A stretch of 64,000 nucleotides of DNA from Desulfosoma sp. (GTDB lineage Bacteria; Desulfobacterota; Syntrophobacteria; Syntrophobacterales; DSM-9756): contig JBBFKW010000008.1 in the NCBI GenBank assembly GCA_037481835.1, positions 32,001-96,000 on the forward strand, written 5' to 3'. The first letter of the stretch is position 1; the number at the start of each line of letters is the position of its first letter. Of the stretch, positions 1-13,820 are shown one piece after another. A program made the translations under genes and the position numbers. A model generated the notes under the pieces. The model was given only the letters and a program-made list of their open reading frames with translations. It was not told the origin of the DNA and made no database searches.

Positions 1-111
1 TTCCACTTGTGGGCCGGAGGTTGGAAGACATCTCCGCCCTGTTACCCTCTCCCCTCCCCCAAGGGGGAGTGGAAATCTCTTGCCTGAGTGGCTTCTCTTC
101 TCAAAACCGCC

Positions 112-444
112 CTATTGTGATGCAGGGCGGGAATCGTTCGCCGGGCCTGTTTCAGCCAGGCGGTAAGCAAAGTAGGCGCCCCTTTTTTCCCCTTCCGCGA
201 GCAGGCCGTACTTTTTCAGCGAGGCCGTCCACCATAGGACCTCATGGGCGGGCAGGCCGGTCGCTTCCGCCATCTCCGGCACCGTTTTCGCTCCACTGCG
301 AAGCGCCTCCGTCAGGGCCGCAATAATTTTCTTTTGCGCCTTCACGTCCGCCGTGACGCGCTGCACGGTGTCCTTGCGAAGAGCCCGCATTCGTTTAAGG
401 ATTTCCCTGTGCGCTGACTTTTTCGAAACCTGTTCCCCTTCCAT
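112..444 (-). CDS. Small winged helix-turn-helix protein, last gene of the hdrA-like operon
   Basis: GAKTVPEMAEATGLPAHEVLWWTASLKKYGLL looks like a wHTH; AAGGA SD before ATG at 444. Confidence 0.7.
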   Translation of the reverse strand: MEGEQVSKKSAHREILKRMRALRKDTVQRVTADVKAQKKIIAALTEALRSGAKTVPEMAEATGLPAHEVLWWTASLKKYGLLAEGEKRGAYFAYRLAETGPANDSRPASQ

Positions 445-486
445 GGTTTTATCCTTTTGCGTTTTTCGAAAAATTTTCCGCACACG

Positions 487-2409
487 TTACGCCGCCTGGT
501 CCGAGACGATGGCATCCACCATGGCTTCAAACTGGGCCAACGTGGAGCCCTTGACCTGGATGGCGCCTGTAGGGCACACGGCGACGCATGCGCCGCAGCC
601 GAGGCAGAGCGCGGAAACCACTTGAGCCCGGCGCACCGTCCGGCCGTCTTTTTCCGTTTCCACCATGCGGATGGCCCCGTCCCGCAGGCAGGCGTCCACG
701 CAGGCCCCCGTGCCTTCGCATTTTTCCGGGTCAACTTCCGCGACGAAAGGATCCAGTTGGACGGAGCCTTTGGCCAGAAGCACGGCGGCCTTTGAGGCCG
801 CCGCAGAAGCGGCGTTGCACGATTCGCCGATATCCATGGGCGCCTGGCAGGTCCCGGCGAGCAAAAGACCGGCGGTCGCCAGTTCCACGGGCCGCAGCTT
901 GGGATGCACTTCCAACAAGAAGCCGTCCGCGCCCACGGGAAGCTTCATCATGTCCACGAGATCCCCGATATCCGAGGGTTCCATGCCCACGGCGAGGACG
1001 ACCAGGTCGGCGGGGATTTCCACCTCTTCGCCGAATGTCAGAGTGTCTTGAACACGAACGACGATGGGAAACGGGAAGGTGCCCTCGGAGCGTTCCACCC
1101 GGGGCGGGTTTTCGGGTTCGAACCTCAGGAAGAGAACCTTGTTGCGCGCCGCCTGCTGGTAAAGCTCCTCCTGTCCTCGGCCGTAAGCTCGAATGTCCCG
1201 GTACAATTCAAACACCCGCGTGCCGGGAAAACGTTCCCGAACCTGGTTGGCGGCGAAAAGGGTCGCCGAACAACACGTGCGCGAACAGTACTCGTTCAGG
1301 CGCCCGGAGGCGTTTTCCTCATGAATGCCGGGAATCTGGCGGCTTCCCACGCAGTGGATCATGGCGATGCTGCGGATGGGCCGTCCCCTGAAGGTCAAGA
1401 GGGCACCGGAGGGGTCGGCGTCCCGGAGAGCCTCGACGAATTCGGGAAGTGTGATCACTTCCGGGAATTCTTCATAGCCGTATTCTCCCCGGCGCGGCGT
1501 GTAGGGCTTGAATCCGGTGGCGAGAACCACAACGCCGGTTTCCACGCGAAACCGGTTCTTGGCCTTCGGAGCGGGGCGGATCAGGGCGCCTTTGGACGGA
1601 ACGTAGACGGGACCGTTTCCGGTCAAGGCCTCTTCGGCACGGCGCAGGGTGTCGTCCGCTTCCTGAAGTGGTGCCGTTTCCACCTCCAGCGAGAAGTTCC
1701 CGACGTAGCCTTCAAAGCCCACGATGCGCGCACAGGGATGAAAGGCGATGGAGCCGTGTTCTGAAATGCGCCGGGCCAGGGACAGGATGAGTTCGCAGGC
1801 CGGCTCGCCCGTCGGGGCCACACGGTCCAGGGCCGCCGTGCGGCCGCCCATCCACGGCGTTTTTTCCAAGAGATCCACGGCAAACCCTCTTTCCGCAAGA
1901 TCCAGGGCTGCGCGCATGCCGGCGATCCCCGCCCCGATCACCGTCGCGTGCTGTTTCGCCTCCACCCGCAGCGGTTCCAGGGCTTCCAGCCGACGTGCTT
2001 TGGCGGCCGCCGCCGCGATGAGTGTGAAGGCCTTGTCCGTGGCGGCATCCCCGTGATGCACCCAGCTTACCTGTTCCCGGATGTTTGCGTGTTCGTACAC
2101 GTAGGGGTTGACCCCGGCCCGTTCCAGGACGCGCCGGAACGTCGTCTCATGGAGGCTCGGCGAGCAGGAAGCCACCACCACCCGGTCCACGAGGCCTTGT
2201 TTCAGGTCGTCCAAGATGAGTTCCTGGCCTGGGTCGGAACACATGAACATGTTGCGCCGAGCCGTCACCACCCCCGGGATGCTCTGCGCCCTCTCACAGA
2301 GGGCCTCCACATCCACATGATCCGAAATGTTTCCGCCGCAATGGCAGATATAGACGCCCACACGCGCTTCTTTCGCCTCGTTCGGGGACGGTTTGTCACG
2401 ATTTTCCAT
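487..2409 (-). CDS. hdrA: Heterodisulfide reductase subunit A-like flavoprotein (N-terminal domain, FAD domain, C-terminal ferredoxin)
   Basis: GVYICHCGGNI, MCSDPGQ, VASCSP, VIGAGIAG, IHCVGSRQ...YCSRTCC, CLGCGACVAVCP; GGAGA SD before ATG 2409. Confidence 0.9.
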   Translation of the reverse strand: MENRDKPSPNEAKEARVGVYICHCGGNISDHVDVEALCERAQSIPGVVTARRNMFMCSDPGQELILDDLKQGLVDRVVVASCSPSLHETTFRRVLERAGVNPYVYEHANIREQVSWVHHGDAATDKAFTLIAAAAAKARRLEALEPLRVEAKQHATVIGAGIAGMRAALDLAERGFAVDLLEKTPWMGGRTAALDRVAPTGEPACELILSLARRISEHGSIAFHPCARIVGFEGYVGNFSLEVETAPLQEADDTLRRAEEALTGNGPVYVPSKGALIRPAPKAKNRFRVETGVVVLATGFKPYTPRRGEYGYEEFPEVITLPEFVEALRDADPSGALLTFRGRPIRSIAMIHCVGSRQIPGIHEENASGRLNEYCSRTCCSATLFAANQVRERFPGTRVFELYRDIRAYGRGQEELYQQAARNKVLFLRFEPENPPRVERSEGTFPFPIVVRVQDTLTFGEEVEIPADLVVLAVGMEPSDIGDLVDMMKLPVGADGFLLEVHPKLRPVELATAGLLLAGTCQAPMDIGESCNAASAAASKAAVLLAKGSVQLDPFVAEVDPEKCEGTGACVDACLRDGAIRMVETEKDGRTVRRAQVVSALCLGCGACVAVCPTGAIQVKGSTLAQFEAMVDAIVSDQAA

Positions 2410-2443
2410 GGACATTCTCCTTGGAAACCGGCGGTGCGGCGGC

Positions 2444-3754
2444 TCAGGCTGCACGCCCCGCCACCTTCTTGCGCCCGGCCAGATAGGTCGCCGCATGCAT
2501 GGCGGCGGCGCTCGCCTCCGCAATGCTGTCCACAATATCCTTGGGGCCTGCCGCCGCGCCGGCGGCAAAGATGCCCGCCTCACCCGTCCAGGTCGGGGCG
2601 AGCTTGGGTTCGGGGCCTGAGATGAAGCCGTCGGATCCCGTCATGATGGGCGCCCGACCCGCCGGGTTCCACCCGGGAACCTTTCCGAGGGACAAGACCA
2701 CAAGATCATGGGACGCCGCACTCACGCCGCCGTCCATCTGATCTTCGTATCGCACGGTCACGGAACCGTCTTCGCCCGGTTCGATCAAGGCTACCTTGGC
2801 CTTGACGAAGCGGATACCCATGGCCTGCGCGTTTTGGAAAAACTGCTCGTAGTTCTTCCCGAAGGCGCGGATGTCCATGTAATAGATGGTAATGTCCGCA
2901 AGGGGGAGCGCCCCGGAAAGGAGCATGGCCTGCTTGATGGCATACATGCAGCACACCCTGGAACAATACGGAATCCCGAGGCTTTTGTCCCGCGATCCGG
3001 CGCACTGGACGAAGGCGATGGAATCGGGTTCCCTGCCGTCGGATGGACGGAGCACTCGGTTGTACGGCCCGTGGGGCGCCAAGAGCCGCTCCATCTGGAG
3101 CGCCGTGATGACATTGGGGACCGCGCCCCTGCCGTACTGGGCCTTGTCCTCCAGGGGGGTCACGGAAAAGCCCGTGGCGACGACAGCCGCGATGGCTTCG
3201 ATGACGAGAGTGCGGGGTTCCTGGTCGTAGCGCACGGCGTCGGTGGGGCACACCGTCGCGCAGGTGCCGCACAGCATGCAGTGGTCCGGATCCATGACGG
3301 CGATTTGAGGAACCGCGTTGGAAAAGGGGACGCAAATGGCTTTTCGGGCGGCGAAGTTGCCCTGGTCCGGGTCGGGCACGTAAACCGGGCAGTGGTATTC
3401 GCATTGGCGACACCCGATGCAGCGCGTCTCGTCCACATAGCGGGGTTTTTTCCGCACCTGAGCCCGGATCATGCCCGATGCGTCCCTTTGTAGAGTTTCC
3501 AGCTCGCAGTAAGTGAAGAGCGTGATCTTTTCGTGGTGCGCCGCCGCGGCCATTTTGGGGGTCGTGATGCAGCTGGCGCAGTCCAGAGTGGGAAAAACCT
3601 TGGACAGGCGGATCATGGTGCCGCCGATGGTCGCGTCCTTTTCCACGACGGCCACCGAATAGTCCTGGTCCGCCAGGTCCAGCGCCGCCTGAAGACCGGC
3701 GATCCCTCCTCCGATCACGAGCGCATCGAAGCGATGGGTTTCATGCGATGCCAT
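2444..3754 (-). CDS. hdrA: Heterodisulfide reductase subunit A-like flavoprotein (FAD domain with inserted 2x[4Fe-4S] ferredoxin)
   Basis: VIGGGIAG, KVFPTLDCASCI, CIGCRQCEYHCP, CMLCGTCATVCP, VQCAGSRD...YCSRVCCMY. Confidence 0.9.
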   Translation of the reverse strand: MASHETHRFDALVIGGGIAGLQAALDLADQDYSVAVVEKDATIGGTMIRLSKVFPTLDCASCITTPKMAAAAHHEKITLFTYCELETLQRDASGMIRAQVRKKPRYVDETRCIGCRQCEYHCPVYVPDPDQGNFAARKAICVPFSNAVPQIAVMDPDHCMLCGTCATVCPTDAVRYDQEPRTLVIEAIAAVVATGFSVTPLEDKAQYGRGAVPNVITALQMERLLAPHGPYNRVLRPSDGREPDSIAFVQCAGSRDKSLGIPYCSRVCCMYAIKQAMLLSGALPLADITIYYMDIRAFGKNYEQFFQNAQAMGIRFVKAKVALIEPGEDGSVTVRYEDQMDGGVSAASHDLVVLSLGKVPGWNPAGRAPIMTGSDGFISGPEPKLAPTWTGEAGIFAAGAAAGPKDIVDSIAEASAAAMHAATYLAGRKKVAGRAA

Positions 3755-3766
3755 AAGGGTCCTTTC

Positions 3767-4225
3767 CTACGCCGTCATCGCCCGGGGCGTCTCAGCACCC
3801 GGCGTCGTGGGCGGGCTTTCCGTGCCCGGCGGTCCCAGCTCCTGGACGAGGGCGTGCATCTGCTTCACTTCGTTGACGAAGGCCCGGGTGCACACGGTGC
3901 AGATGGACGTCAGCCGCAGGCGCCGAATGTCCAGGCCGCGTTCCTTCATGATCTGGTAGACGCGGTCGATGCACTTGGCCAAGGCCTCGTAGGCTCCCTC
4001 GTAAGGGCATTCCACCCCGCAGCTCATGACGATGATCCCGGCAATGCCCTTGGCGAAACAGTCCAGATAGAACTTTTCCGGGAAGAGCACCGGAGCCTTC
4101 ACCTTGATGATGTAGGTGTTGGCGGGGTAGCTCATGTGCGCCTGCCCGACGGCATCGGCCCCCGGGTAGGCGCAGCTTTCCGTCGCCAAAATCAGGATCT
4201 TTCCCTTATAGGGCGCGGTGTCCAT
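3767..4225 (-). CDS. mvhD: MvhD/FlpD-like iron-sulfur subunit (divergent)
   Basis: CAYPGADAVG...YP, GIIVMSCGVECPY, GLDIRRLRL; adjacent to hdrA. Confidence 0.8.
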   Translation of the reverse strand: MDTAPYKGKILILATESCAYPGADAVGQAHMSYPANTYIIKVKAPVLFPEKFYLDCFAKGIAGIIVMSCGVECPYEGAYEALAKCIDRVYQIMKERGLDIRRLRLTSICTVCTRAFVNEVKQMHALVQELGPPGTESPPTTPGAETPRAMTA

Positions 4226-4237
4226 GACGTATCCCCG

Positions 4238-4492
4238 TTACTTCTTGCGCATGACGAAGATGCGCTCGTAGCCGTCGGCGGGAAGATGCCCCAAGTACTC
4301 GTGCCCCACCTTTTTCGCCCAGACGGGGATGTCGTTTTTCGTGCCCGGATCGTTGGAAAGGATTTCCAAAACATCGCCGACCTTGACCTTGCCAATGGCC
4401 TTCTTGGCTTCCAAAAGGGGGCCCGGGCAGGCGCTGCCTCGAGCGTCCACAACCGAGGCGGGCTGAAGGTTTTGCAGATCCATGGATGTCAT
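4238..4492 (-). CDS. tusA: TusA/SirA-family sulfur carrier protein
   Basis: DARGSACPGP signature, GDVLEILSNDPG, DIPVWAKKVGH; AGGAG SD before ATG 4492. Confidence 0.9.
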   Translation of the reverse strand: MTSMDLQNLQPASVVDARGSACPGPLLEAKKAIGKVKVGDVLEILSNDPGTKNDIPVWAKKVGHEYLGHLPADGYERIFVMRKK

Positions 4493-4840
4493 CGTCTTGC
4501 TCCTTTTGCTCATGGGCTCACATCGATGTTTTCCAAAACCGTCGCCCACACTCAGGGCAAAGCCCGTGCCAGGCGGGTCTTTCCCCATAAGGGGCGCCGT
4601 TTCCCAAGGATCCGCCGGCTTTGCCTCCCCCCATCCCCCCATGCCGCTTGCGCCTTCGAAAAAGGCGCGGGGCCGCACTCCCCATGGAACGCGCCCCTGG
4701 GGAACAGTGTGTTAAAGTCTGAACAGATGTTTTGTTCATGATTAAACAGGCGCTAAATTTTGGGGGCACACAAGGGGGGATGCATTTTATCGAGGCGTCA
4801 TTATTCAACTTATGGCACAAGAGGGAGGAGGCCCTAGGGT

Positions 4841-4858
4841 TCGGCAAGATTGTTGCTT
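4841..4858 (+). promoter_or_regulatory. Putative sigma54 -24/-12 promoter for the dsrE-like gene
   Basis: TCGGCAAGATTGTTGCTT, with GG(4843-4844)-N10-GC(4855-4856) and TTGC at -12. Confidence 0.5.
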
Positions 4859-4960
4859 AAGGGGGTGTCCCTTGAGCGTCGGGAGGCCCCGGGCGGTGCT
4901 GGAGGCGGCCGCACGGGGGTTGGGTCGGGATCCATTTGTCGAGAGGAAAGGAGAAAGGCC

Positions 4961-5320
4961 ATGAAGTTATGTTTTGTCATTTCCATCGGATTCGAGCGGT
5001 CGGGGTCTGCGACGCGGGCCATGCAGTTTGCAAGCATCGCCGCCGAGCAAGGGCATCACGTGGAGGTCTTCCTCATCGACGATGCCATTCATTGGGCGCA
5101 GATCGGCATGGCGGAAGGGATCCGCTCTTCGACGGGCGAGCACATGAAAGACCTTCTGGACACCCTCATCGCCCGAAAAACCCCCATTCACGTGTGCAAG
5201 GCCTGTGCGGACAAGCGGTTGGTCTCGCCCGATGACCTCATCGCAGGGGCGGTCATTTCGCCGGCACCGGTCCTTGTAAAGATGATCGGCGATCCCGAGT
5301 ACAAGGTCCTGACTTTTTAG
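4961..5320 (+). CDS. DsrE/DsrF-like family protein
   Basis: A..AAEQGHHVEVFLIDDAI, IHVCKACADKR; AGGAG SD. Confidence 0.85.
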   Translation: MKLCFVISIGFERSGSATRAMQFASIAAEQGHHVEVFLIDDAIHWAQIGMAEGIRSSTGEHMKDLLDTLIARKTPIHVCKACADKRLVSPDDLIAGAVISPAPVLVKMIGDPEYKVLTF

Positions 5321-5533: not shown

Positions 5534-6283
5534 ATGCACCGAGTTTCTCATTCCTTTTTGTCAAGGATCTCCGCTGCCGCCATGGCGGCGGTCGTGCTTT
5601 TCGCCATGGCGCCGGAAAGCCGTGCCGCCGACAACGCCCCCCTTCAAAAACTCGTCGCCAACATCCATTGGCTGGGCCACGACGCCTTTCGCATCGACGG
5701 CAACGATGCGGTCATCTACATCGACCCCTACCGGCTCAAGGGCGGCCCTGCGGCCGACTTGATCCTCGTCACACACGATCACGCCGACCACGCATCCCCG
5801 GCTGATGTGGAAAAGATCCGCAAGGCGGATACGGTCATCGTGACCACGGCCGCTGCGGCATCGAAATTTTCCGGAGAGGTCCGAACGGTCAAACCCGGCG
5901 ATGAAATCAGCGTGAAAGGGGTCGGCATCCGTGCCGTTGCGGCCTACAACCTCACCAAGTTTCGAAGTCCGGGAGTGCCCTTTCATCCCAAGGAAGCCGG
6001 CCACGTGGGGTTCGTCGTCACGGTGGACGGGGTCCGGATCTATCATGCCGGAGATACGGACCTCATTCCGGAAATGGCGGGACTCGCCCCGGATGTGGCG
6101 CTCCTTCCGGTAAGCGGCACCTACGTGATGACCGCAGAGGAGGCCGTGGAAGCGGCGGCATCCATCGGCCCGAAGGTGGCCGTCCCGATGCATGTGGGGG
6201 AAGGGATCGGTACCTTGGAAGATGCCGCACGTTTTAAGTCCAAGGCCGGCGTTCCCGTGATCGTTCTTCCCATGGAAAAATGA
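5534..6283 (+). CDS. Metallo-beta-lactamase-fold hydrolase with N-terminal signal peptide
   Basis: WLGH, IYIDPY, THDHADH, YHAGDT, VPMH; hydrophobic N-terminus ending SRA-A. Confidence 0.85.
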   Translation: MHRVSHSFLSRISAAAMAAVVLFAMAPESRAADNAPLQKLVANIHWLGHDAFRIDGNDAVIYIDPYRLKGGPAADLILVTHDHADHASPADVEKIRKADTVIVTTAAAASKFSGEVRTVKPGDEISVKGVGIRAVAAYNLTKFRSPGVPFHPKEAGHVGFVVTVDGVRIYHAGDTDLIPEMAGLAPDVALLPVSGTYVMTAEEAVEAAASIGPKVAVPMHVGEGIGTLEDAARFKSKAGVPVIVLPMEK

Positions 6284-6298
6284 CCCAAGGAGCCTCCC

Positions 6299-7411
6299 AT
6301 GACGAGCCGAGGATTTTCCGGAAAATTGCTCGAACCTTTTCCCCTGGGCGACTTGGCGCTCAAGAACCGAGTGGTCATGGCGCCCATGACGCGGTCCCGG
6401 GCCGGCGAAGAACGTCGCGCCAATCCTCTCATGGCCGAATACTACGCCCAACGGGCTTCAGCGGGCCTGATCATTACGGAAGCGACGGTTGTTTCCAAGC
6501 AAGGCATCGGCTGGCTGAACACCCCCGGCTTGTATCATAACGAGCAGGCCCTTGCGTGGCGGCTCGTCACGGATGCCGTGCACGCCCACGGAACGCCCAT
6601 CTTTGTGCAGCTTTGGCATTGCGGGCGAGCGTCCCACAGCAGCTTTCAGGAAAACGGCGCCCTTCCGGTCGCCCCGTCGGCCGTCAAGCTGAACGGCGAC
6701 ACCCTTCGCACGCCCATCGGCAAACAGCCTTATGAAACCCCGAGGGCTTTGGAGACGGAGGAAATTCCAGGCATTGTGGAAGACTATCGAAAAGCGGCCG
6801 AACGGGCCAAGGAGGCCGGCTTCGACGGGGTGGAAATCCATGCCGCAAACGGCTACCTCATCGACCAGTTCCTCCAATCGCGCACCAATCACCGCACGGA
6901 TCGCTACGGCGGCAGCGTGGAAAACCGATACCGGTTCCTGGACGAGGTGGTTCGCGCGATCCTGACGGTTTGGCCCTCCTGGCGCGTCGGGGTGCGCCTC
7001 TCTCCCAACGGCGTCTTCAACGACATGGGATCCCCGGATTTCCGGGAAACTTTTCTCTACGCCGCGCGACAGCTCGATTCCCTGAACCTCGCTTACCTCC
7101 ACATCGTCGACGGGTTGGCTTTCGGCTTCCACGGCCTTGGCGATCCGATCACACTGCAGGAATGCCGCACCGTTTTTCGAGGCCCGCTCATGGGCAACTG
7201 CGGCTACACGCGCGAATCGGCGGACGCCGCCATCGCCGAAGGCCATGCGGATCTCATTTCCTTCGGCCGCCCGTATCTCAGCAATCCGGACCTGGTGGAA
7301 CGCTTCGCCAACAACTGGCCCCTGAATCCCGAGGCCGACCCTCGAGTGTGGTATTCCTTCGACGCCGTCGGCTACACGGACTTTCCCCGCTACGGGGAGG
7401 CCCACGCCTGA
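6299..7411 (+). CDS. nemA: Old Yellow Enzyme / NemA-like alkene reductase
   Basis: NRVVMAPMTRSRA, QLWHCGR, GFDGVEIHAANGYLIDQFL, GYTDFP. Confidence 0.9.
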   Translation: MTSRGFSGKLLEPFPLGDLALKNRVVMAPMTRSRAGEERRANPLMAEYYAQRASAGLIITEATVVSKQGIGWLNTPGLYHNEQALAWRLVTDAVHAHGTPIFVQLWHCGRASHSSFQENGALPVAPSAVKLNGDTLRTPIGKQPYETPRALETEEIPGIVEDYRKAAERAKEAGFDGVEIHAANGYLIDQFLQSRTNHRTDRYGGSVENRYRFLDEVVRAILTVWPSWRVGVRLSPNGVFNDMGSPDFRETFLYAARQLDSLNLAYLHIVDGLAFGFHGLGDPITLQECRTVFRGPLMGNCGYTRESADAAIAEGHADLISFGRPYLSNPDLVERFANNWPLNPEADPRVWYSFDAVGYTDFPRYGEAHA

Positions 7412-7448
7412 AAACAGGAGCCCCGACGTTTTTGCACATCCCGGGTTC

Positions 7449-8261
7449 TTATCCGTTCCGTGTCCCCTTCCCTTTTGATTTCCTGGGAAACCAGGGGATA
7501 AAGGTGGAGGTCCGTTCCACGTAGTCTCGGTATTCGGGACGGGTTTCGGTCAGGGTTCGCTCCAAGAGGGTGACGCCGGAGACGCGAAGCAAAAGGAACG
7601 TGATCAGGGCGGGAGAAACGAAGGTCCATCCGCCGCCGGGGACGGAGAGGGCGATGAGGAACATTCCCCACCAGACCAGGGTTTCTCCGAAATAATTGGG
7701 GTGGCGGCTGTAGGCCCAGAGGCCCCGATCCATGACCTTCCCTCTATTTGCCGGATCTTTTTTGAACCGCAGGAGCTGGTAATCGGCGATGCTTTCGATG
7801 ACGATCCCCGCCAGGGCGACGGATCCTCCCACCAGGTCCGTCATCGTCAGATGATCGGGATAGGGAACGAGGCACGCCCACTGGACCGGCAGGGCGATGA
7901 TCCACAGCAGGACCGCTTGCAAGCCGAAAACCGCAAAGAGGCTCACCCTGGGAAACGCCGCGCCGTGCTTTTCCCGCATGGCCCGGTAGCGCGGATCCTC
8001 TCCCTTTCCCCAGCTGCGGTAAGTGATGTGGGCACATAACCGAAGGCCCCACAGGGTGGTCAGCCCCACGACCAAAAGGGTGCGCCGCCCGTATCCGGGC
8101 CCCAAGAACGCCGCAACCCACGCCACGACGACGAATCCCAAACCCCAGAAACGATCGGCCAGAGAAGCGTTTTTTTTGATCACCGTGAAGGGCCACAAGC
8201 CGATCATGAGGATCAGCGCGGCCGCAAGCGATGAAGTGAAAACAAGGGTTACGGGCGCCAT
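7449..8261 (-). CDS. DUF1295 family (steroid 5-alpha-reductase-like) membrane protein
   Basis: GEDPRY, ADYQL..FK, GLWAYSRHPNYFGE, SGVTLLE; AAAGGAG SD. Confidence 0.85.
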   Translation of the reverse strand: MAPVTLVFTSSLAAALILMIGLWPFTVIKKNASLADRFWGLGFVVVAWVAAFLGPGYGRRTLLVVGLTTLWGLRLCAHITYRSWGKGEDPRYRAMREKHGAAFPRVSLFAVFGLQAVLLWIIALPVQWACLVPYPDHLTMTDLVGGSVALAGIVIESIADYQLLRFKKDPANRGKVMDRGLWAYSRHPNYFGETLVWWGMFLIALSVPGGGWTFVSPALITFLLLRVSGVTLLERTLTETRPEYRDYVERTSTFIPWFPRKSKGKGTRNG

Positions 8262-9646
8262 GGGCCGGAACTCCTTTCCGACAAAGCGCGGCGAAGCGCC
8301 GCGTGCGTTTTTCGATCCAGGGGATAGGCCCATGCCACGGCCATGGCAAAGGCGTTGCAAAGGCTCGGCACCAGGGCATACAGGAGGCGCAGCCGCACCA
8401 GGACCGGTTCGCTCTGCACCACGTTGGGTTCGTACCCGGCGTGGCCCAGAAGCATCAAGGCCGCTCCCACACCCACCGCCGCCGCCAGTTTCTTTGCAAC
8501 AGACCAAACGCCAATGTAAAACCCTTCCAGCCGCTCTCCGGTGAGCCACTGATGATAGTCGATGACGTCGGCCTGCATGGCAGACGGCAAAGCGACCGTC
8601 CCGCCGAAGCCCATGCCGGAGAGGAAAACCAGCCCGGCATAGAGCACCTCATCCCCGCGGCCGAGGAAAAAGACTCCCGCGAAGGCGCTCGTGTTGATCG
8701 CCATGGCGGCCATCCACGCTTCCTTCTTTCCGAAAGCGGTCGCCAATCGAATCCAGGCGGGAAGGAAGACGATCCCGGTCACGAAGTAGATCATGAGGTA
8801 CACATCGGCCTTGGCAGACCCCAAGACATACTGGACATAATAGAGAATCAAGGTTGCCGGCAGGTTGCTCCCGAAAGCACTCACCGTGTAAGCAAATAAG
8901 AGAATCACGAACGGACGGTTTTTGAGCGACGCTTTGAGGTTTTGCCGGAAGCTCAACGGAGCCGCAGGCCATGAGCCCAGGGGGTGTCTTTCGTGCACGC
9001 GTGTTGCGCACACGATGCACGCCGCAACGAGAAACGGGGCGTAGAGGGCTCCCATGAGCCGAAACGTGGTTCGCTCCCCTTCCCCAGTCTCCGGAAGCGG
9101 AAGGAAGGCCCCGAGCAGCGCCGGAAAAGCGGCCGCCATCAGGATGCCCGCAAGGACGAACCCGTCTCGAAGGCCGAGCAGGCGTGTTCTTTCGTCGTAG
9201 TCCAGAGTGATTTCAGGACCCAGGGCTTCATAAGGGACTTCCACGATCGTCCAGAAAAGAAAGACGGCGAAAACGCATATGGAGAACCACCATCGAAGGG
9301 GATCCCCGGACCATGCCGGGGGATGGAACAACCCCCAGAGGGACGCCGCCAGAGGAAAGGCTCCGAAAAGGATGTAGGGGCGTCGTCGTCCCAGGGACGT
9401 TCGAGTTCGGTCGGAAATCCAGCCGCATAGGGGATCGCTCAAGGCGTCGAAAAGCCGGACGGCCAGAAGGACCGATCCGGCGCTGGCCGCCGAAAGGCCC
9501 ATGACATCCGTGTAAAATTTAGGCATATAGACGTAGACGGGAATGCCCACGACGGCCAATGCGAGGGCCGGCAGAGCGTAGCTGATGCGCAAACCGAGGC
9601 GGACCCGCTCGGATGGGTCCACGGCAGAGGGAAGGGAGCGGTCCAT
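8249..9646 (-). CDS. MFS transporter, GPH/MelB-like family
   Basis: About 12 TM segments, RLFDALSDPLCGWISDRTRTSLGRRRPYI, VPYEALGPEITLDYDERTRL; start uncertain by about 25 nt. Confidence 0.85.
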   Translation of the reverse strand: MDRSLPSAVDPSERVRLGLRISYALPALALAVVGIPVYVYMPKFYTDVMGLSAASAGSVLLAVRLFDALSDPLCGWISDRTRTSLGRRRPYILFGAFPLAASLWGLFHPPAWSGDPLRWWFSICVFAVFLFWTIVEVPYEALGPEITLDYDERTRLLGLRDGFVLAGILMAAAFPALLGAFLPLPETGEGERTTFRLMGALYAPFLVAACIVCATRVHERHPLGSWPAAPLSFRQNLKASLKNRPFVILLFAYTVSAFGSNLPATLILYYVQYVLGSAKADVYLMIYFVTGIVFLPAWIRLATAFGKKEAWMAAMAINTSAFAGVFFLGRGDEVLYAGLVFLSGMGFGGTVALPSAMQADVIDYHQWLTGERLEGFYIGVWSVAKKLAAAVGVGAALMLLGHAGYEPNVVQSEPVLVRLRLLYALVPSLCNAFAMAVAWAYPLDRKTHAALRRALSERSSGPWRP

Positions 9647-10007
9647 GACGCAAAATCCTATACGCGATTGCGGGTCCTCACCCAATTGCGTGTCCAGCAC
9701 CGCCTCCGACCCGGCGCGCCGCATCGACCCCATGCCGGTGACGGTGCCCCCGGCGCGTCTCATGGCGGAACTGGAAAAGATCCTCACGGCCATGCCCCGC
9801 ACGACCATCGTCGAACGCCGGTCCGATTTCCTCCGAGCCGAAGTCCGAAGCCTCTTGGGCTTCGTGGACGATGTGGAATTCTTTGTGGATCCGTCGCATA
9901 ACCTTCTCCACATGCGTTCGGCATCCCGCACCGGGTATTGGGACCTGGGCGTCAACCGAAGGCGCTTGGAAACCGTCCGCTCCCAGTTACGGCGCCGCTT
10001 GGGATGA
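9645..10007 (+). CDS. DUF1499 family protein
   Basis: CGSSPNCVSS, GFVDDVEF, RSASRTGYWDLGVNRRRLE; GGGAG SD before ATG 9645. Confidence 0.8.
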   Translation: MTQNPIRDCGSSPNCVSSTASDPARRIDPMPVTVPPARLMAELEKILTAMPRTTIVERRSDFLRAEVRSLLGFVDDVEFFVDPSHNLLHMRSASRTGYWDLGVNRRRLETVRSQLRRRLG

Positions 10008-10019
10008 AACCGGTGCCCG

Positions 10020-10436
10020 TCACGTCAACCATCGGTCCAGCCGAAAGGCGACGGCGTTCACCACGGCGCATAACACCCCTCCCCAAGCCGTGTCGGCGAA
10101 ACTCAGCGGAACCGGCCAGCGGGCCAGGGTGGACAGGTTCGTAAAATCATAGACGCCGTAGAGCGTCACCCCGTAGAGAAACCCCCAAAGCAGGGCCGAT
10201 AACAGACCGAACTCGGGGTTGACCCGCGGCAGGGCAAAAAGGAGGATCCCCAGGGGGATCAGCAGGTACACGATCACAGCGGCCCACCACAGGGGGGCAA
10301 GGGCATCGCCGTTGCGCCGAGCCAGATCGCCGAGCTGCGCCTTGTAAAACTTGGGCATGATCAGGCCCAGGTAGCTGAGGTCGATGGCGAGAAAGATCGC
10401 GGTGGTGAGAACGTAGAGTTTCAGGGCATGCCACAT
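10020..10436 (-). CDS. DUF2177 family membrane protein
   Basis: FLAID..YLG, YGVYDFTNLSTLARWP...DTAWGG; AAAGGAG SD. Confidence 0.8.
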   Translation of the reverse strand: MWHALKLYVLTTAIFLAIDLSYLGLIMPKFYKAQLGDLARRNGDALAPLWWAAVIVYLLIPLGILLFALPRVNPEFGLLSALLWGFLYGVTLYGVYDFTNLSTLARWPVPLSFADTAWGGVLCAVVNAVAFRLDRWLT

Positions 10437-10551
10437 GGAGCGCTCCTTTCCTCGAGAGCCTTGGCTTATCGGGAACAAGGGGTTACACAGACAAGCTAAG
10501 CGTCTTGAGCCCGTTTTCATCCCCTGACACCAAAAAAAGCGGAGCCTTTCC

Positions 10552-11826
10552 ATGAACCATCCACACGGCTGGAATATCGCGGTCATCGGGGCCGGCATCT
10601 CAGGCATCGCCGCGGCTTACGTTCTTCAGCGCGCACACCGGGTCACGATTTTCGAACGCAACGAATCCCTCGGGGGGCACACCCGCACGGTGGTCGTGGA
10701 CGACGGCTCCGACGCCGGACTTCCCGTGGATACAGGATTCATCGTTTTGAACGACCGCACCTATCCCTTGCTGCTCGCCTACTTCGACCAGCTGGGCGTG
10801 CGCCTGCGCAAAACCGACATGGCTTTTAGCTACTGGAACCCGACCCGCAACTTCTTTTATGCCGGAACCGGGTGGCGGGGCCTTCTGGCGCAGCCGAAAA
10901 ATATGGCGAATCCGAAGTTCTTGCGTCTTCTTTTGGGGATCGGCCGTTTCATGGCCACGACCAGACGGAGCCTCATGGAAGGATCCCTGCGGGGAATCAG
11001 CCTGGGTGATTATTTGGATCGACAAAGGTTTTCCAAAGAAGTGGTTCATGCTTTCGTCCTCCCCATGGCCGGCGCGATCTGGTCCACACCCGCCCGGGCG
11101 GTGGCTGCTTTTCCGGCCGAAGCCTTCGCCCGCTTCTACGAACATCACGGGCTGCTTTCCCTAAGGCGCCGTCCCCAGTGGTTTTTCGTCCACGGAGGCA
11201 GCCACAGTTACATCAAAGCTTTTCTGAAACGGTTCCAAGGAGAAGTGTTGACGCAGAAGGCCGTGGCCCGAGTGTTTCGCCATGAAGACGGCGTGGAGGT
11301 GTTGTGCGAAGACGGCGACCGTCGCCGTTTCGATGCCGTGGTTTTCGCCGCCCATGCTGACCAAACCCTGGCTATGATTGAAAATCCCGACCCTCGTGAG
11401 CGGGCTTTGCTTTCGGCGTGGCGCTACAACCGAAACCGAACCGTGCTCCACACCGATCCCAGCTATTTGCCGCCGAAATCCGCCGCGTGGGCGTCCTGGA
11501 ACTTCGTCGAAAGGCCCGGTTCCGACTCCGATCGGCGCCTTACGGTCACCTACTTCATGAACCGGCTCCAGGCCCTGCCGTCCGCGACGCCCTATTGTGT
11601 CACTTTGAACCCCTGGGCGGACCACCCGCCCCGAGGCGTCATCGCCGCCTTCGAAGACACGCATCCCATGTATACTTTTGAATCCATGGACACCCAGAAC
11701 GCCCTCCCGTCCCTGAACGGCCGGCATCGCAGCTACTTTTGCGGCGCCTACTTCGGGTACGGCTTCCATGAAGACGGCATCCGCTCCGCGCTGCAGGTGA
11801 CCCGAAACTTCGGATTGGATCTATGA
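10552..11826 (+). CDS. FAD-dependent oxidoreductase of cfa-linked clusters (UfaD-like)
   Basis: VIGAGISG, LGGHTRT, VDTGFIVLNDRTYP, ASWN, GAYFGYGFHEDG. Confidence 0.85.
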   Translation: MNHPHGWNIAVIGAGISGIAAAYVLQRAHRVTIFERNESLGGHTRTVVVDDGSDAGLPVDTGFIVLNDRTYPLLLAYFDQLGVRLRKTDMAFSYWNPTRNFFYAGTGWRGLLAQPKNMANPKFLRLLLGIGRFMATTRRSLMEGSLRGISLGDYLDRQRFSKEVVHAFVLPMAGAIWSTPARAVAAFPAEAFARFYEHHGLLSLRRRPQWFFVHGGSHSYIKAFLKRFQGEVLTQKAVARVFRHEDGVEVLCEDGDRRRFDAVVFAAHADQTLAMIENPDPRERALLSAWRYNRNRTVLHTDPSYLPPKSAAWASWNFVERPGSDSDRRLTVTYFMNRLQALPSATPYCVTLNPWADHPPRGVIAAFEDTHPMYTFESMDTQNALPSLNGRHRSYFCGAYFGYGFHEDGIRSALQVTRNFGLDL

Positions 11827-13820
11827 GCGCCCCCTCTTCTTTCCTGTTTTCGGGCATCGTCGAACACGAACGCCTGGAACCCGTCAAGCACGCCTTCCGC
11901 TACCCTGTGCGTGTCTTCGCCTTCGATGTGGACGACCTGCCCCGGCTCGGCGAGACCCTGGTCCTTTTCAGTCACAACCGGACCAATGTCACATCGCTGC
12001 ACGATAAGGATTACCTGGACGGCCGATCGGCACCAATCCGCCCTCGGCTGGAAAAGATGCTGGAAAAACGAGGCATCGCTCCCCCTTTCGGCCGTATCGT
12101 TCTCGTAACCTCGGCGAGGCACGGCACGCGGGTCTTCAATCCCGTGAGCTTCTACTATGTTTTCGATCCCCGGGGGGACCTCAAAACCGTCGTGGCGGAG
12201 GTGAACAACACCTTCGGCGAACGGCACCTGTACATCCTGTCCGAACCCCACCCGGATCCTCGAGGGGCTTTTCGACGCTACCACGCGGACAAGGTCTTTC
12301 ATGTGTCGCCCTTTCACGACATGTCGGGGCGCTACGAGTTTCTCTTCGGGGACATCCGTCGCGAACTTTCCATCGAAGTGAGATTGTGGAAAGAAGACCG
12401 CATGGTCTTTCGCGCGAGGCTGGAGGGCTCTGGAGAACCCTTGACAAACCGGGCGCTGGCCCGGTCGGTCCTCCGAGATCCCCTCTTGCCCCACTGGACC
12501 ATGCCCCGCATCTTGTGGCAGGCAGCACAGCTCTTTATAAGGAGGCGACTGCAGGTGTTTACCAAACCCACCGCGACCCACGAATGGACGTTGATCAAGA
12601 ACCCGCCCGGCGTCCTGGACAAGAGATTCGGCCGATGGTTTCTGGATCTTTTTTCTGCAGCCGAAAAAGGGGACCTGACCGTGACGCTTCCGGATGGAAC
12701 CCGCCACCGTTTCGGCACACCCGGCGACACACCCCATGCGGATCTCACCGTGCACGATCCTGGATTCTTCACGCGGGTTTTTTGGGCCGGGGATGTGGGC
12801 CTGGGAGAATCTTTCATGGACGGCATGTGGGACAGCACCGATCCCACGGCTTTTATCGCCTTTTTGATCCGCAACCGGGACGTGCTGGAAAACCGCCGGA
12901 GCACCGCCTCGAAACTCGCCGGGGTGCTGGATCGGCTGCGGCACCTGTCCCGGGCCAACACTCTCTTCGGGTCGCGGCGAAATATCCGGCGCCATTACGA
13001 TCTGAGCAACGAGCTCTTCGCGGCCTTTCTCGATCCTTCCATGACCTATTCCTGCGCCCTTTTCGAAAAGGACGGGGATGATTTGGAAGAGGCCCAGCGC
13101 CGAAAATTGCGACGCATCGCCCAAAAGGCCCGGCTCGGCCCGAACGACCACGTCCTGGAAATCGGGTGCGGCTGGGGAAGCTTTGCCGTGCTCGCCGCCC
13201 GGGAAACGGGCTGCCGCGTGACCGGCATCACGGTCTCCAAAGCCCAATGGGATTTCGCTCGGCAACGAGTTCGAGAAGCCGGGCTGGAAGACCGCGTGAC
13301 GATCCTCCTCCGGGACTACCGCCGAGTTCAAGGCCGGTTCGATAAGATCGTCTCCATCGAAATGCTCGAAGCCGTCGGGCACGAATACCTGCCCCGCTTT
13401 TTCCAGTGCTGCGAAAGGCTTCTCGCCCCGCACGGCCTTCTGGTCCTCCAAACCATCGCCATCCCCGACCATCGCTACGAACGCTATCGCAAAGGCTGCG
13501 ATTGGATCCAAAAATACATCTTCCCCGGCGGCATGCTCCCATCCCTCGGGGCGCTTTGTCAGGCCATGGCCGAAACATCCACCTTTTACGTGGAGTCACT
13601 GGAAAACATCGGGGTGCACTATGCCCGGACGTTACGGGAATGGCGTCTTCGGTTTGAAAAGAACCGAGAAGCCGTTCGACGGCTGGGTTTCGATGAGACC
13701 TTCCGGCGTATGTGGCTCTATTACCTGTGTTTCTGCGAAGCGGCCTTCGCCACGCGCACCCTGAACGACCTCCAATTGGTCCTGAGCCGCCCCAACAACC
13801 CCGCATTGGATGCCCCATGA
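11823..13820 (+). CDS. DUF1365 fused to a cyclopropane-fatty-acyl-phospholipid synthase-type SAM methyltransferase
   Basis: N-terminal FNPVSFYY, AEVNNTFGERH, KVFHVSPF; C-terminal HYDLSN, MTYSCA, LEIGCGWG, SIEMLEAVG, YIFPGG. Confidence 0.9.
   Translation: MSAPSSFLFSGIVEHERLEPVKHAFRYPVRVFAFDVDDLPRLGETLVLFSHNRTNVTSLHDKDYLDGRSAPIRPRLEKMLEKRGIAPPFGRIVLVTSARHGTRVFNPVSFYYVFDPRGDLKTVVAEVNNTFGERHLYILSEPHPDPRGAFRRYHADKVFHVSPFHDMSGRYEFLFGDIRRELSIEVRLWKEDRMVFRARLEGSGEPLTNRALARSVLRDPLLPHWTMPRILWQAAQLFIRRRLQVFTKPTATHEWTLIKNPPGVLDKRFGRWFLDLFSAAEKGDLTVTLPDGTRHRFGTPGDTPHADLTVHDPGFFTRVFWAGDVGLGESFMDGMWDSTDPTAFIAFLIRNRDVLENRRSTASKLAGVLDRLRHLSRANTLFGSRRNIRRHYDLSNELFAAFLDPSMTYSCALFEKDGDDLEEAQRRKLRRIAQKARLGPNDHVLEIGCGWGSFAVLAARETGCRVTGITVSKAQWDFARQRVREAGLEDRVTILLRDYRRVQGRFDKIVSIEMLEAVGHEYLPRFFQCCERLLAPHGLLVLQTIAIPDHRYERYRKGCDWIQKYIFPGGMLPSLGALCQAMAETSTFYVESLENIGVHYARTLREWRLRFEKNREAVRRLGFDETFRRMWLYYLCFCEAAFATRTLNDLQLVLSRPNNPALDAP

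Follow-up and report, generated by a model that had tools for sequence, protein, structure and literature searches.

At the edge of a 64,000-nucleotide stretch of a Desulfosoma sp. genome (the window, G000:C8:32001-96000) lies an operon of eight genes, tusA-mvhD-hdrA(short)-hdrA(long)-wHTH-hdrC-hdrB-dsrE, in which wHTH denotes a small winged-helix protein. The window shows the upstream five-eighths of this unit plus an extra, divergent dsrE, and the rest lies on the adjoining part of the contig; coordinates below are those of the window, and those prefixed C8 that fall outside the above range belong to the flanking contig. The main result of our analysis is corrective, in that the apparent absence of the subunits HdrB and HdrC, as seen from the window, is a window-edge effect. 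Our best explanation of the whole, to which we give roughly even odds (a probability of about 0.5), is that this sigma-54-dependent operon encodes a soluble Hdr-like complex that acts on sulfur bound to TusA and DsrE, probably by reducing it.

The operon continues beyond the window edge

Genes were identified from Pfam and NCBIfam profile matches to the proteins of the window and its flank. The operon is read from the minus strand and begins with tusA (4238-4492; PF01206, expect value E = 1.4e-20), which encodes a sulfur-carrier protein of 84 amino acids with a single cysteine, its start chosen by comparison with orthologues of that same length. It is followed by mvhD (3767-4225; PF02662 FlpD, E = 9.2e-21), for a [2Fe-2S]-type electron-transfer subunit of 152 amino acids, and by genes for two HdrA proteins, a short one of 436 amino acids (2444-3754; NCBIfam HdrA2, E = 1e-135) and a long one of 642 (487-2415, with the reading frame open to 2583; HdrA2, E = 5e-150). 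The winged-helix protein comes last within the window (112-444, 110 amino acids from its ATG, with the reading frame open to 483) and belongs to no Pfam family. From tusA to wHTH the intergenic gaps measure 12, 12, 28 and 3-42 nucleotides. On the plus strand, a DsrE-family gene (4961-5320; PF02635, E = 8.6e-21) points away from tusA. All six genes of the tight operon and divergent dsrE described by the sequence-only reading are therefore present in their places, five of them by profile match and wHTH without one.

That reading had also held that no hdrB or hdrC is adjacent, and had named the sequence before position 1 as the place to look. We looked there and found both genes on the same strand just past the edge, together with a second dsrE and a regulatory gene. 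The hdrC-like gene (C8:31638-32006, minus strand) carries two CxxCxxCxxxCP motifs and matches the QmoC N-terminal domain (E = 1e-23) and HdrC (E = 5.5e-14) among NCBIfam profiles. It starts either at a GTG at window base 6 or at an ATG 33 nucleotides before base 1, which places it 105-144 nucleotides from the wHTH stop codon. If the GTG is used, the first codons of hdrC occupy window positions 1-6 on the minus strand, with the rest of the gene outside. Positions 1-111, which had been taken as non-coding, are so from about 7 to 111, but the first six would be coding with the GTG start. The end of hdrC overlaps the start of an hdrB-like gene of 330 codons (C8:30671-31663, minus strand; CCG domain PF02754, E = 1.3e-9), and beyond it, on the same strand, lie the second dsrE (C8:30220-30588; PF02635, E = 8.6e-20) and a gene for a sigma-54 activator with matches to PAS, AAA+ and HTH_8 domains (about C8:28484-29887).

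These findings bear directly on the proposal that HdrA-HdrA-MvhD works without HdrBC and passes electrons straight to sulfur bound to TusA or DsrE. What spoke for it was the view from the window alone, in which no hdrB or hdrC is visible, and hdrBC transcribed together with the module just outside the window had been named as the observation that would tell against it. The same-strand hdrC and hdrB-like genes follow across a gap free of terminator-like sites, and they occupy the same place in all 80 public loci and in all 11 loci examined in the same order. The public loci are the best 80 kept from a scan of species-representative genomes that returned 372 relatives, and the same-order sample comprised 41 genomes. 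The proposal is refuted in this form, and we regard an HdrBC-less module as next to untenable. The terminator scan is in itself weak evidence, as terminator-like sites were not above shuffles, although none fell in the gap between wHTH and hdrC; a scan for sigma-70 promoters, likewise weak evidence, gave 0 promoter-like sites.

A conserved gene cluster in sulfate reducers

The order of the operon is strongly conserved. Among the public loci with at least 6,300 nucleotides of flank upstream of hdrB, 54 of 55 hold the seven genes from tusA to hdrB in order. A strict script that demanded a single alignment covering at least 60% of every gene passed 47 of these 55; seven failures came from a gene in two alignment pieces or from low coverage, and in the eighth, locus L083, runs of N interrupt the sequence immediately upstream of wHTH. 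In the same order, eight of the 11 loci have all seven genes in order and the other three are cut by contig ends. The tusA gene heads the cluster wherever there is enough flank, with a second TusA-like open reading frame 5' of it in 19 of 53 loci, and wHTH stands between hdrA and hdrC in every public locus with at least 700 nucleotides of upstream flank.

The two dsrE genes differ in this respect. A DsrE-family gene directly follows hdrB, in the same orientation, in 52 of the 53 loci with at least 3 kilobases of flank on that side, whereas the arrangement of the window, with a DsrE-family reading frame upstream of tusA, is seen in only 4 of 52. These counts were made with iterated local profiles, since tblastn with the in-window DsrE badly undercounts DsrE linkage. 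Close copies of the divergent DsrE at the same position are confined to Desulfacinum-like relatives and a few others. Thus, by comparison of loci, the divergent gene is a lineage-specific addition, and the conserved dsrE is the downstream one outside the window. The linkage of both carriers to the module, on which the sequence-only reading had leaned, is conserved for tusA and for the downstream dsrE but not for the divergent copy.

The closest named carriers, among the best 80 of 372 loci, are Desulfacinum infernum and D. hydrothermale, whose HdrB-like proteins share 76-77% identity with that of the operon. Others are mostly assemblies of Desulfobacterales, Desulfatiglandales (including strain NaphS2), Desulfosarcina, Desulfococcaceae and Syntrophobacteraceae, plus one Archaeoglobaceae assembly. 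Orthologues of the HdrB-like protein were found in 13 of the 41 same-order genomes, with the genome of the window counted. Across the phylum, in an evenly drawn sample of 401 genomes, 31 have a match at E <= 1e-30, 15 of them at the level of orthologues (E <= 1e-135), and a profile search of a library of 1.84 billion proteins finds 176 cluster representatives at E <= 1e-30. A search of full-text articles returned no description of the eight-gene set. The operon is widely conserved in sulfate reducers and apparently unstudied.

Several individual loci deserve mention. In L038, L042, L046-L048, L058, L064, L071, L076, L079, L080 and L095, the hdrA or mvhD of the operon appears as two tblastn pieces, which could reflect an in-frame TGA (selenocysteine), frameshifts or assembly errors. 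A complete but more divergent copy of the operon lies on a contig binned as Archaeoglobaceae (L093), and its long HdrA groups with HdrL-type loci in the tree described below. Copies at 54-56% identity lie on contigs labelled Spirochaetaceae, Gammaproteobacteria and Zixiibacteriota (L034, L057, L091). These last three placements may be binning errors or gene transfer. Finally, apart from two runs from which the assembly may itself derive, two hot-spring metagenome runs match the stretch G000:C8:28001-38000 (L115), with 0.90 and 0.71 of its sampled words present.

Subunits with complementary losses

The two HdrA proteins each lack what the other has kept. The short HdrA is reduced to a flavin domain into which a 2x[4Fe-4S] ferredoxin domain is inserted; it has neither the N-terminal nor the C-terminal domain, and its alignment with solved HdrA spans residues 142-560 (8rvv_A, E = 5e-116; 5odc_A, E = 4e-111). 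The long HdrA has the N-terminal domain, the flavin domain and the C-terminal ferredoxin domain, and its alignment with 5odc_A covers residues 2-234 and 318-641 (E = 1.2e-127); the inserted ferredoxin domain is missing, with a cysteine-free linker in place of segment 235-317. The GxGxxG dinucleotide motif is present in both. The cysteines follow the same pattern, with those of the DCxSC motif of the short HdrA (C59, C62) kept in 58 of 58 sequences and those of its inserted ferredoxin in 57-58 of 58, while the long HdrA has a cysteine at the DCxSC position in only 2 of 60. Judged by their alignments, these are two HdrA proteins with complementary domain losses. In the 5ODC complex, a cysteine of the DCxSC region reportedly completes a cluster in the N-terminal domain of the partner, and such a partner-completed cluster would fit an obligate HdrA heterodimer.

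Conservation of the cysteines extends to the smaller subunits. TusA Cys22, in the motif VDARGxxCPGPLLEAKK, is kept in 57 of 57 sequences, C83 and C86 of the downstream DsrE are kept in 64 of 64 loci, and six cysteines of MvhD are conserved in 52-54 of 54 sequences. The HdrB-like protein has one cysteine-complete CCG domain, and one is what Pfam detects. Five cysteines (C213, C248, C249, C283 and C286) are invariant in 39 sequences, all of them in this C-terminal domain, and residues 1-200 hold no conserved cysteine among the same sequences, with YSG and DPHTT standing in the N-terminal lobe at the positions of the EtfD cysteine motifs. A structural model of the protein (predicted local distance difference test, pLDDT, 86.6) finds EtfD as its first fold match (E = 5e-9), LutA second, and HdrB at E of about 2e-5.

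The winged-helix protein is harder to place. Its model (pLDDT 89) shows a basic helix of 47 residues followed by the winged helix, and it has no cysteine. The best fold matches are to ArsR, SmtB and SqrR, but they are weak (E about 1e-3), as are its ArsR-like profile scores, and the protein-atlas clusters into which it falls are labelled "ArsR family/hypothetical."

The fold matches of HdrB-like and wHTH raise the question of whether sulfur is the substrate at all. TusA and DsrE could instead supply sulfur for making or repairing cofactors or iron-sulfur clusters of the complex, with the HdrB-like subunit working on a non-sulfur or small-molecule acceptor and wHTH acting as an ordinary autoregulator. 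EtfD and LutA as best fold matches would suit such an arrangement, as would the faint resemblance of wHTH to ArsR/SmtB repressors. We nonetheless find it improbable, because in nearly all loci the operon is framed by two different carrier genes, extra copies of TusA or DsrE accumulate around it, and the cysteine-free wHTH is lodged between structural genes at a spacing of 3-42 nucleotides.

A sigma-54-type promoter and its activator

A sigma-54-type promoter element, TGGCAC-N5-TTGC, was found by pattern match on the minus strand at 4557-4571, about 65 nucleotides upstream of the tusA start. The activator gene adjoins the operon in most public loci, and where it stands divergent to tusA, the interval between the two holds one such element on the operon strand in 44 of 45 loci. 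The loose pattern was matched by chance in 4.9% of 2,000 random draws of 281 nucleotides from the same loci, and the chance rate in the intervals behind the 44 of 45, which are longer than 281 nucleotides, is somewhat above this figure. When only the 260 nucleotides 5' of tusA were searched, the motif appeared in 13 of 55 loci; it usually lies further upstream than that, often before the extra TusA-like gene.

The PAS domain of the activator has five cysteines, spaced C-x4-C-x2-C-x11-C-x12-C, that are invariant in 49 of 49 sequences, a pattern that may mark an iron-sulfur cluster or a thiol switch. Taken with the promoter element, it leads us to infer that the operon is sigma-54-dependent and switched by a thiol- or iron-sulfur-based sensor.

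Relation to known Hdr-like complexes

The closest structural precedent is the MvhADG-HdrABC complex of methanogens (5ODC, 8RVU). The operon shares with it HdrA-type flavin and iron-sulfur domains (E = 1e-111 to 1e-127), MvhD, a 2x[4Fe-4S] subunit of HdrC type and a CCG-fold subunit. However, the methanogen complex has one HdrA with all domains, which the operon divides over its 436- and 642-residue proteins, and its HdrB has two cysteine-complete CCG domains where the HdrB-like subunit has one. The HdrC of the operon is short by comparison (109-122 amino acids), the hydrogenase genes mvhA and mvhG that belong to the methanogen set were not seen among the neighbours scanned, and TusA, DsrE, the winged-helix protein and the sigma-54 promoter are additions. 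The sequence-only reading had likewise reported no adjacent hydrogenase or flx gene, and our scan of the neighbours agrees; the NiFe hydrogenase genes of this genome sit on other contigs.

The operon also resembles QmoABC and QmoAB-HdrCB in having two unequal HdrA-like flavoproteins along with MvhD-like and HdrC-like modules. Excerpts of PMC10504309 describe the QmoAB-HdrBC form of Gram-positive sulfate reducers as well as "type II Qmo" variants. The HdrC-like protein has the QmoC N-terminal domain as its best NCBIfam match, yet it covers positions 2-96 of 360, scores 84 bits against a cut-off of 300, and lacks the membrane haem domain. In addition, MvhD is a separate gene, unlike in QmoABC, and no apr genes, to which QmoABC is linked, were found among the neighbours scanned. 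The same genome carries a separate and more distant Qmo-like set on contig C2 (about 92-96 kilobases). In one Desulfobacterales assembly (L058:10846-18396), three DsrE-family genes and a peroxiredoxin gene come after the operon, along with a second Qmo-like set. That set encodes proteins resembling QmoA, QmoB (with an MvhD domain fused to it) and HdrC, as well as a CCG protein of 146 amino acids.

The nearest relative of the operon is an HdrL-type version, tusA-mvhD-hdrL-hdrA-wHTH-hdrC-hdrB-dsrE, found at L113 and L114, more distant loci from the same phylum. The gene order is the same, but the first HdrA is of HdrL type, with an insertion of about 314 residues that carries Fer4_20 and an NAD(P)-binding domain. 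This NAD(P)H-binding, GltD/NfnB-like insertion is absent from the 436-residue HdrA, which has the ferredoxin insert only. In a FastTree phylogeny of aligned segments of the long HdrA, the orthologues of the operon fall together with the two HdrL-type loci and the Archaeoglobaceae copy in a single clade (local support 1.0) that excludes nine paralogues from the window's genome. Going by the tree and the domain content, the window type is a sister of the HdrL type that is devoid of the NAD(P)H module, and because the plain ferredoxin insert is kept, ferredoxin rather than NAD(P)H would be a partner.

Related sets have been reported before. Passages of PMC2702500 (Strittmatter et al. 2009) list nine Hdr loci in D. 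autotrophicum, of which locus VIII has a tandem hdrL/hdrA4 and orthologues of HdrB and HdrC. According to the relevant portion of PMC5947623, an HdrABC/HdrL set of S. fumaroxidans (Sfum_0819-0824) was detected only with sulfate. We liken both sets to the HdrL-type operon by their HdrL, HdrA and HdrBC content alone.

The S. fumaroxidans set brings up a further possibility, namely that the complex is a cytoplasmic reductase of DsrC trisulfide or disulfide, a soluble alternative to DsrMK for which TusA and DsrE merely shuttle sulfur to or from DsrC. The genome does carry dsrAB and dsrC. DsrK, like the HdrB-like subunit, has a single CCG domain, and a weak NCBIfam match to DsrK was found (E = 0.004). 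The authors of PMC5947623, in the same portion of text, speculate that the related S. fumaroxidans set reduces DsrC. On the other side, dsrC is unlinked to the operon and lies on contig C1, constant linkage is seen for tusA and dsrE instead, and the operon is absent from most of the sampled genomes of the phylum. On balance, we think a DsrC reductase unlikely.

The remaining comparison is with the sulfur-oxidising sHdr-LbpA system and its relay of TusA, DsrE3 and rhodanese. In both cases an Hdr-like complex is always accompanied by TusA and DsrE-family transferases, and the abstract of PMC11094781 reports experiments in which TusA and DsrE proteins were shown to feed the sHdr complex. By analogy, the operon might run in the oxidative direction, with sulfane sulfur on the carriers oxidised and electrons passed through HdrA to ferredoxin or another acceptor, as part of sulfur disproportionation or sulfide oxidation in bacteria that resemble sulfate reducers. 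Sulfate reducers with sulfur-oxidation-type transferases have been reported, in a section of PMC13293266, which fits. However, sHdr has two HdrB, two HdrC, a small HdrA and no MvhD, whereas each locus here has one hdrB and one hdrC, with MvhD present. Moreover, the HdrA proteins of the operon match the solved sHdrA 6tjr at E = 1e-23 to 1e-37, far more weakly than they match methanogen HdrA. The lipoate-binding proteins that sHdr needs were not noticed beside the operon, though no search aimed at LbpA was made. We consider an oxidative role quite unlikely, and we continue with the reading given at the outset, in which carrier-bound sulfur is reduced.

A candidate sulfur-reducing complex

How might such a complex work? 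The two HdrA proteins would form an obligate flavin-containing heterodimer through their complementary domains, and the two outward electron ports would be MvhD and, on the short HdrA, the inserted ferredoxin domain, with ferredoxin and an unknown donor as the likely partners. HdrC would wire the flavin to the HdrB-like subunit, whose single non-cubane [4Fe-4S] site is predicted to act on sulfane sulfur that arrives as a persulfide on TusA and DsrE. Most likely, the sulfur on these carriers would be reduced to sulfide, and flavin-based electron bifurcation may be involved. Expression would start from the sigma-54 promoter under the operon's own activator, whose five-cysteine PAS domain would respond either to redox state or to reactive sulfur. 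The general idea of the sequence-only reading, that an HdrA complex is coupled to protein-bound sulfur, thus gains from the constant heading position of tusA and from the near-constant DsrE downstream, even as its HdrBC-less form falls.

Several points weigh against this reading and keep our confidence near one half. The best fold matches of the HdrB-like subunit, EtfD and LutA, call for caution about its CCG domain, its sequence similarity to true HdrB is weak (E about 1e-3), and not every protein with a CCG domain works on S-S bonds. The operon itself encodes no electron donor, whether a hydrogenase, an NAD(P)H module or a formate dehydrogenase. Its presence in 13 of 41 relatives and in about 15 of 401 genomes of the phylum means that it is accessory, not essential, to sulfate reduction. 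The assignment draws on sequences and models, and no result constrains the direction of the reaction.

It is tempting to join these elements into one scheme. The complex would be a bifurcating enzyme in which the TusA/DsrE persulfide serves as the high-potential acceptor, in place of the heterodisulfide of methanogens; the activator PAS domain would sense reactive sulfur or redox state, and wHTH, as a structural subunit, would take the place of the C-terminal arm that HdrC lacks. We offer this joint scheme tentatively, as possible but doubtful in its entirety.

Genome context and significance

Besides this operon, HdrA-like pairs are encoded at nine or more other loci of the genome, on contigs C2, C4, C5, C10, C11, C12 and C13, and an MvhD-like gene often comes next. 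One HdrA-pair locus adjoins a hydrogenase of the Mvh-type NiFe class (C13, about 139-146 kilobases). Within the window, next to the divergent dsrE, the region 5534-13820 encodes a metallo-beta-lactamase-fold hydrolase with a hydrophobic N-terminus and a flavin oxidoreductase of Old-Yellow-Enzyme type. It also holds an apparent lipid-modification cluster of DUF1295, an MFS_2 transporter, DUF2177, an amine-oxidase-like flavoprotein and a fusion of DUF1365 with cyclopropane-fatty-acid synthase.

Sulfate reducers carry many HdrA-type modules of unknown substrate, and this operon is among the few whose gene context names a candidate, sulfur held by TusA and DsrE. It also brings what appears to be a dedicated sensor-regulator. 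The operon is directly testable, since it occurs in cultured Desulfacinum species and in strain NaphS2. If the joint bifurcation scheme is true, sulfate reducers would make reduced ferredoxin from a modest donor that enters through MvhD. If the complex does reduce carrier-bound sulfur, it would give sulfate reducers a cytoplasmic route for zero-valent sulfur, and this route may conserve energy.

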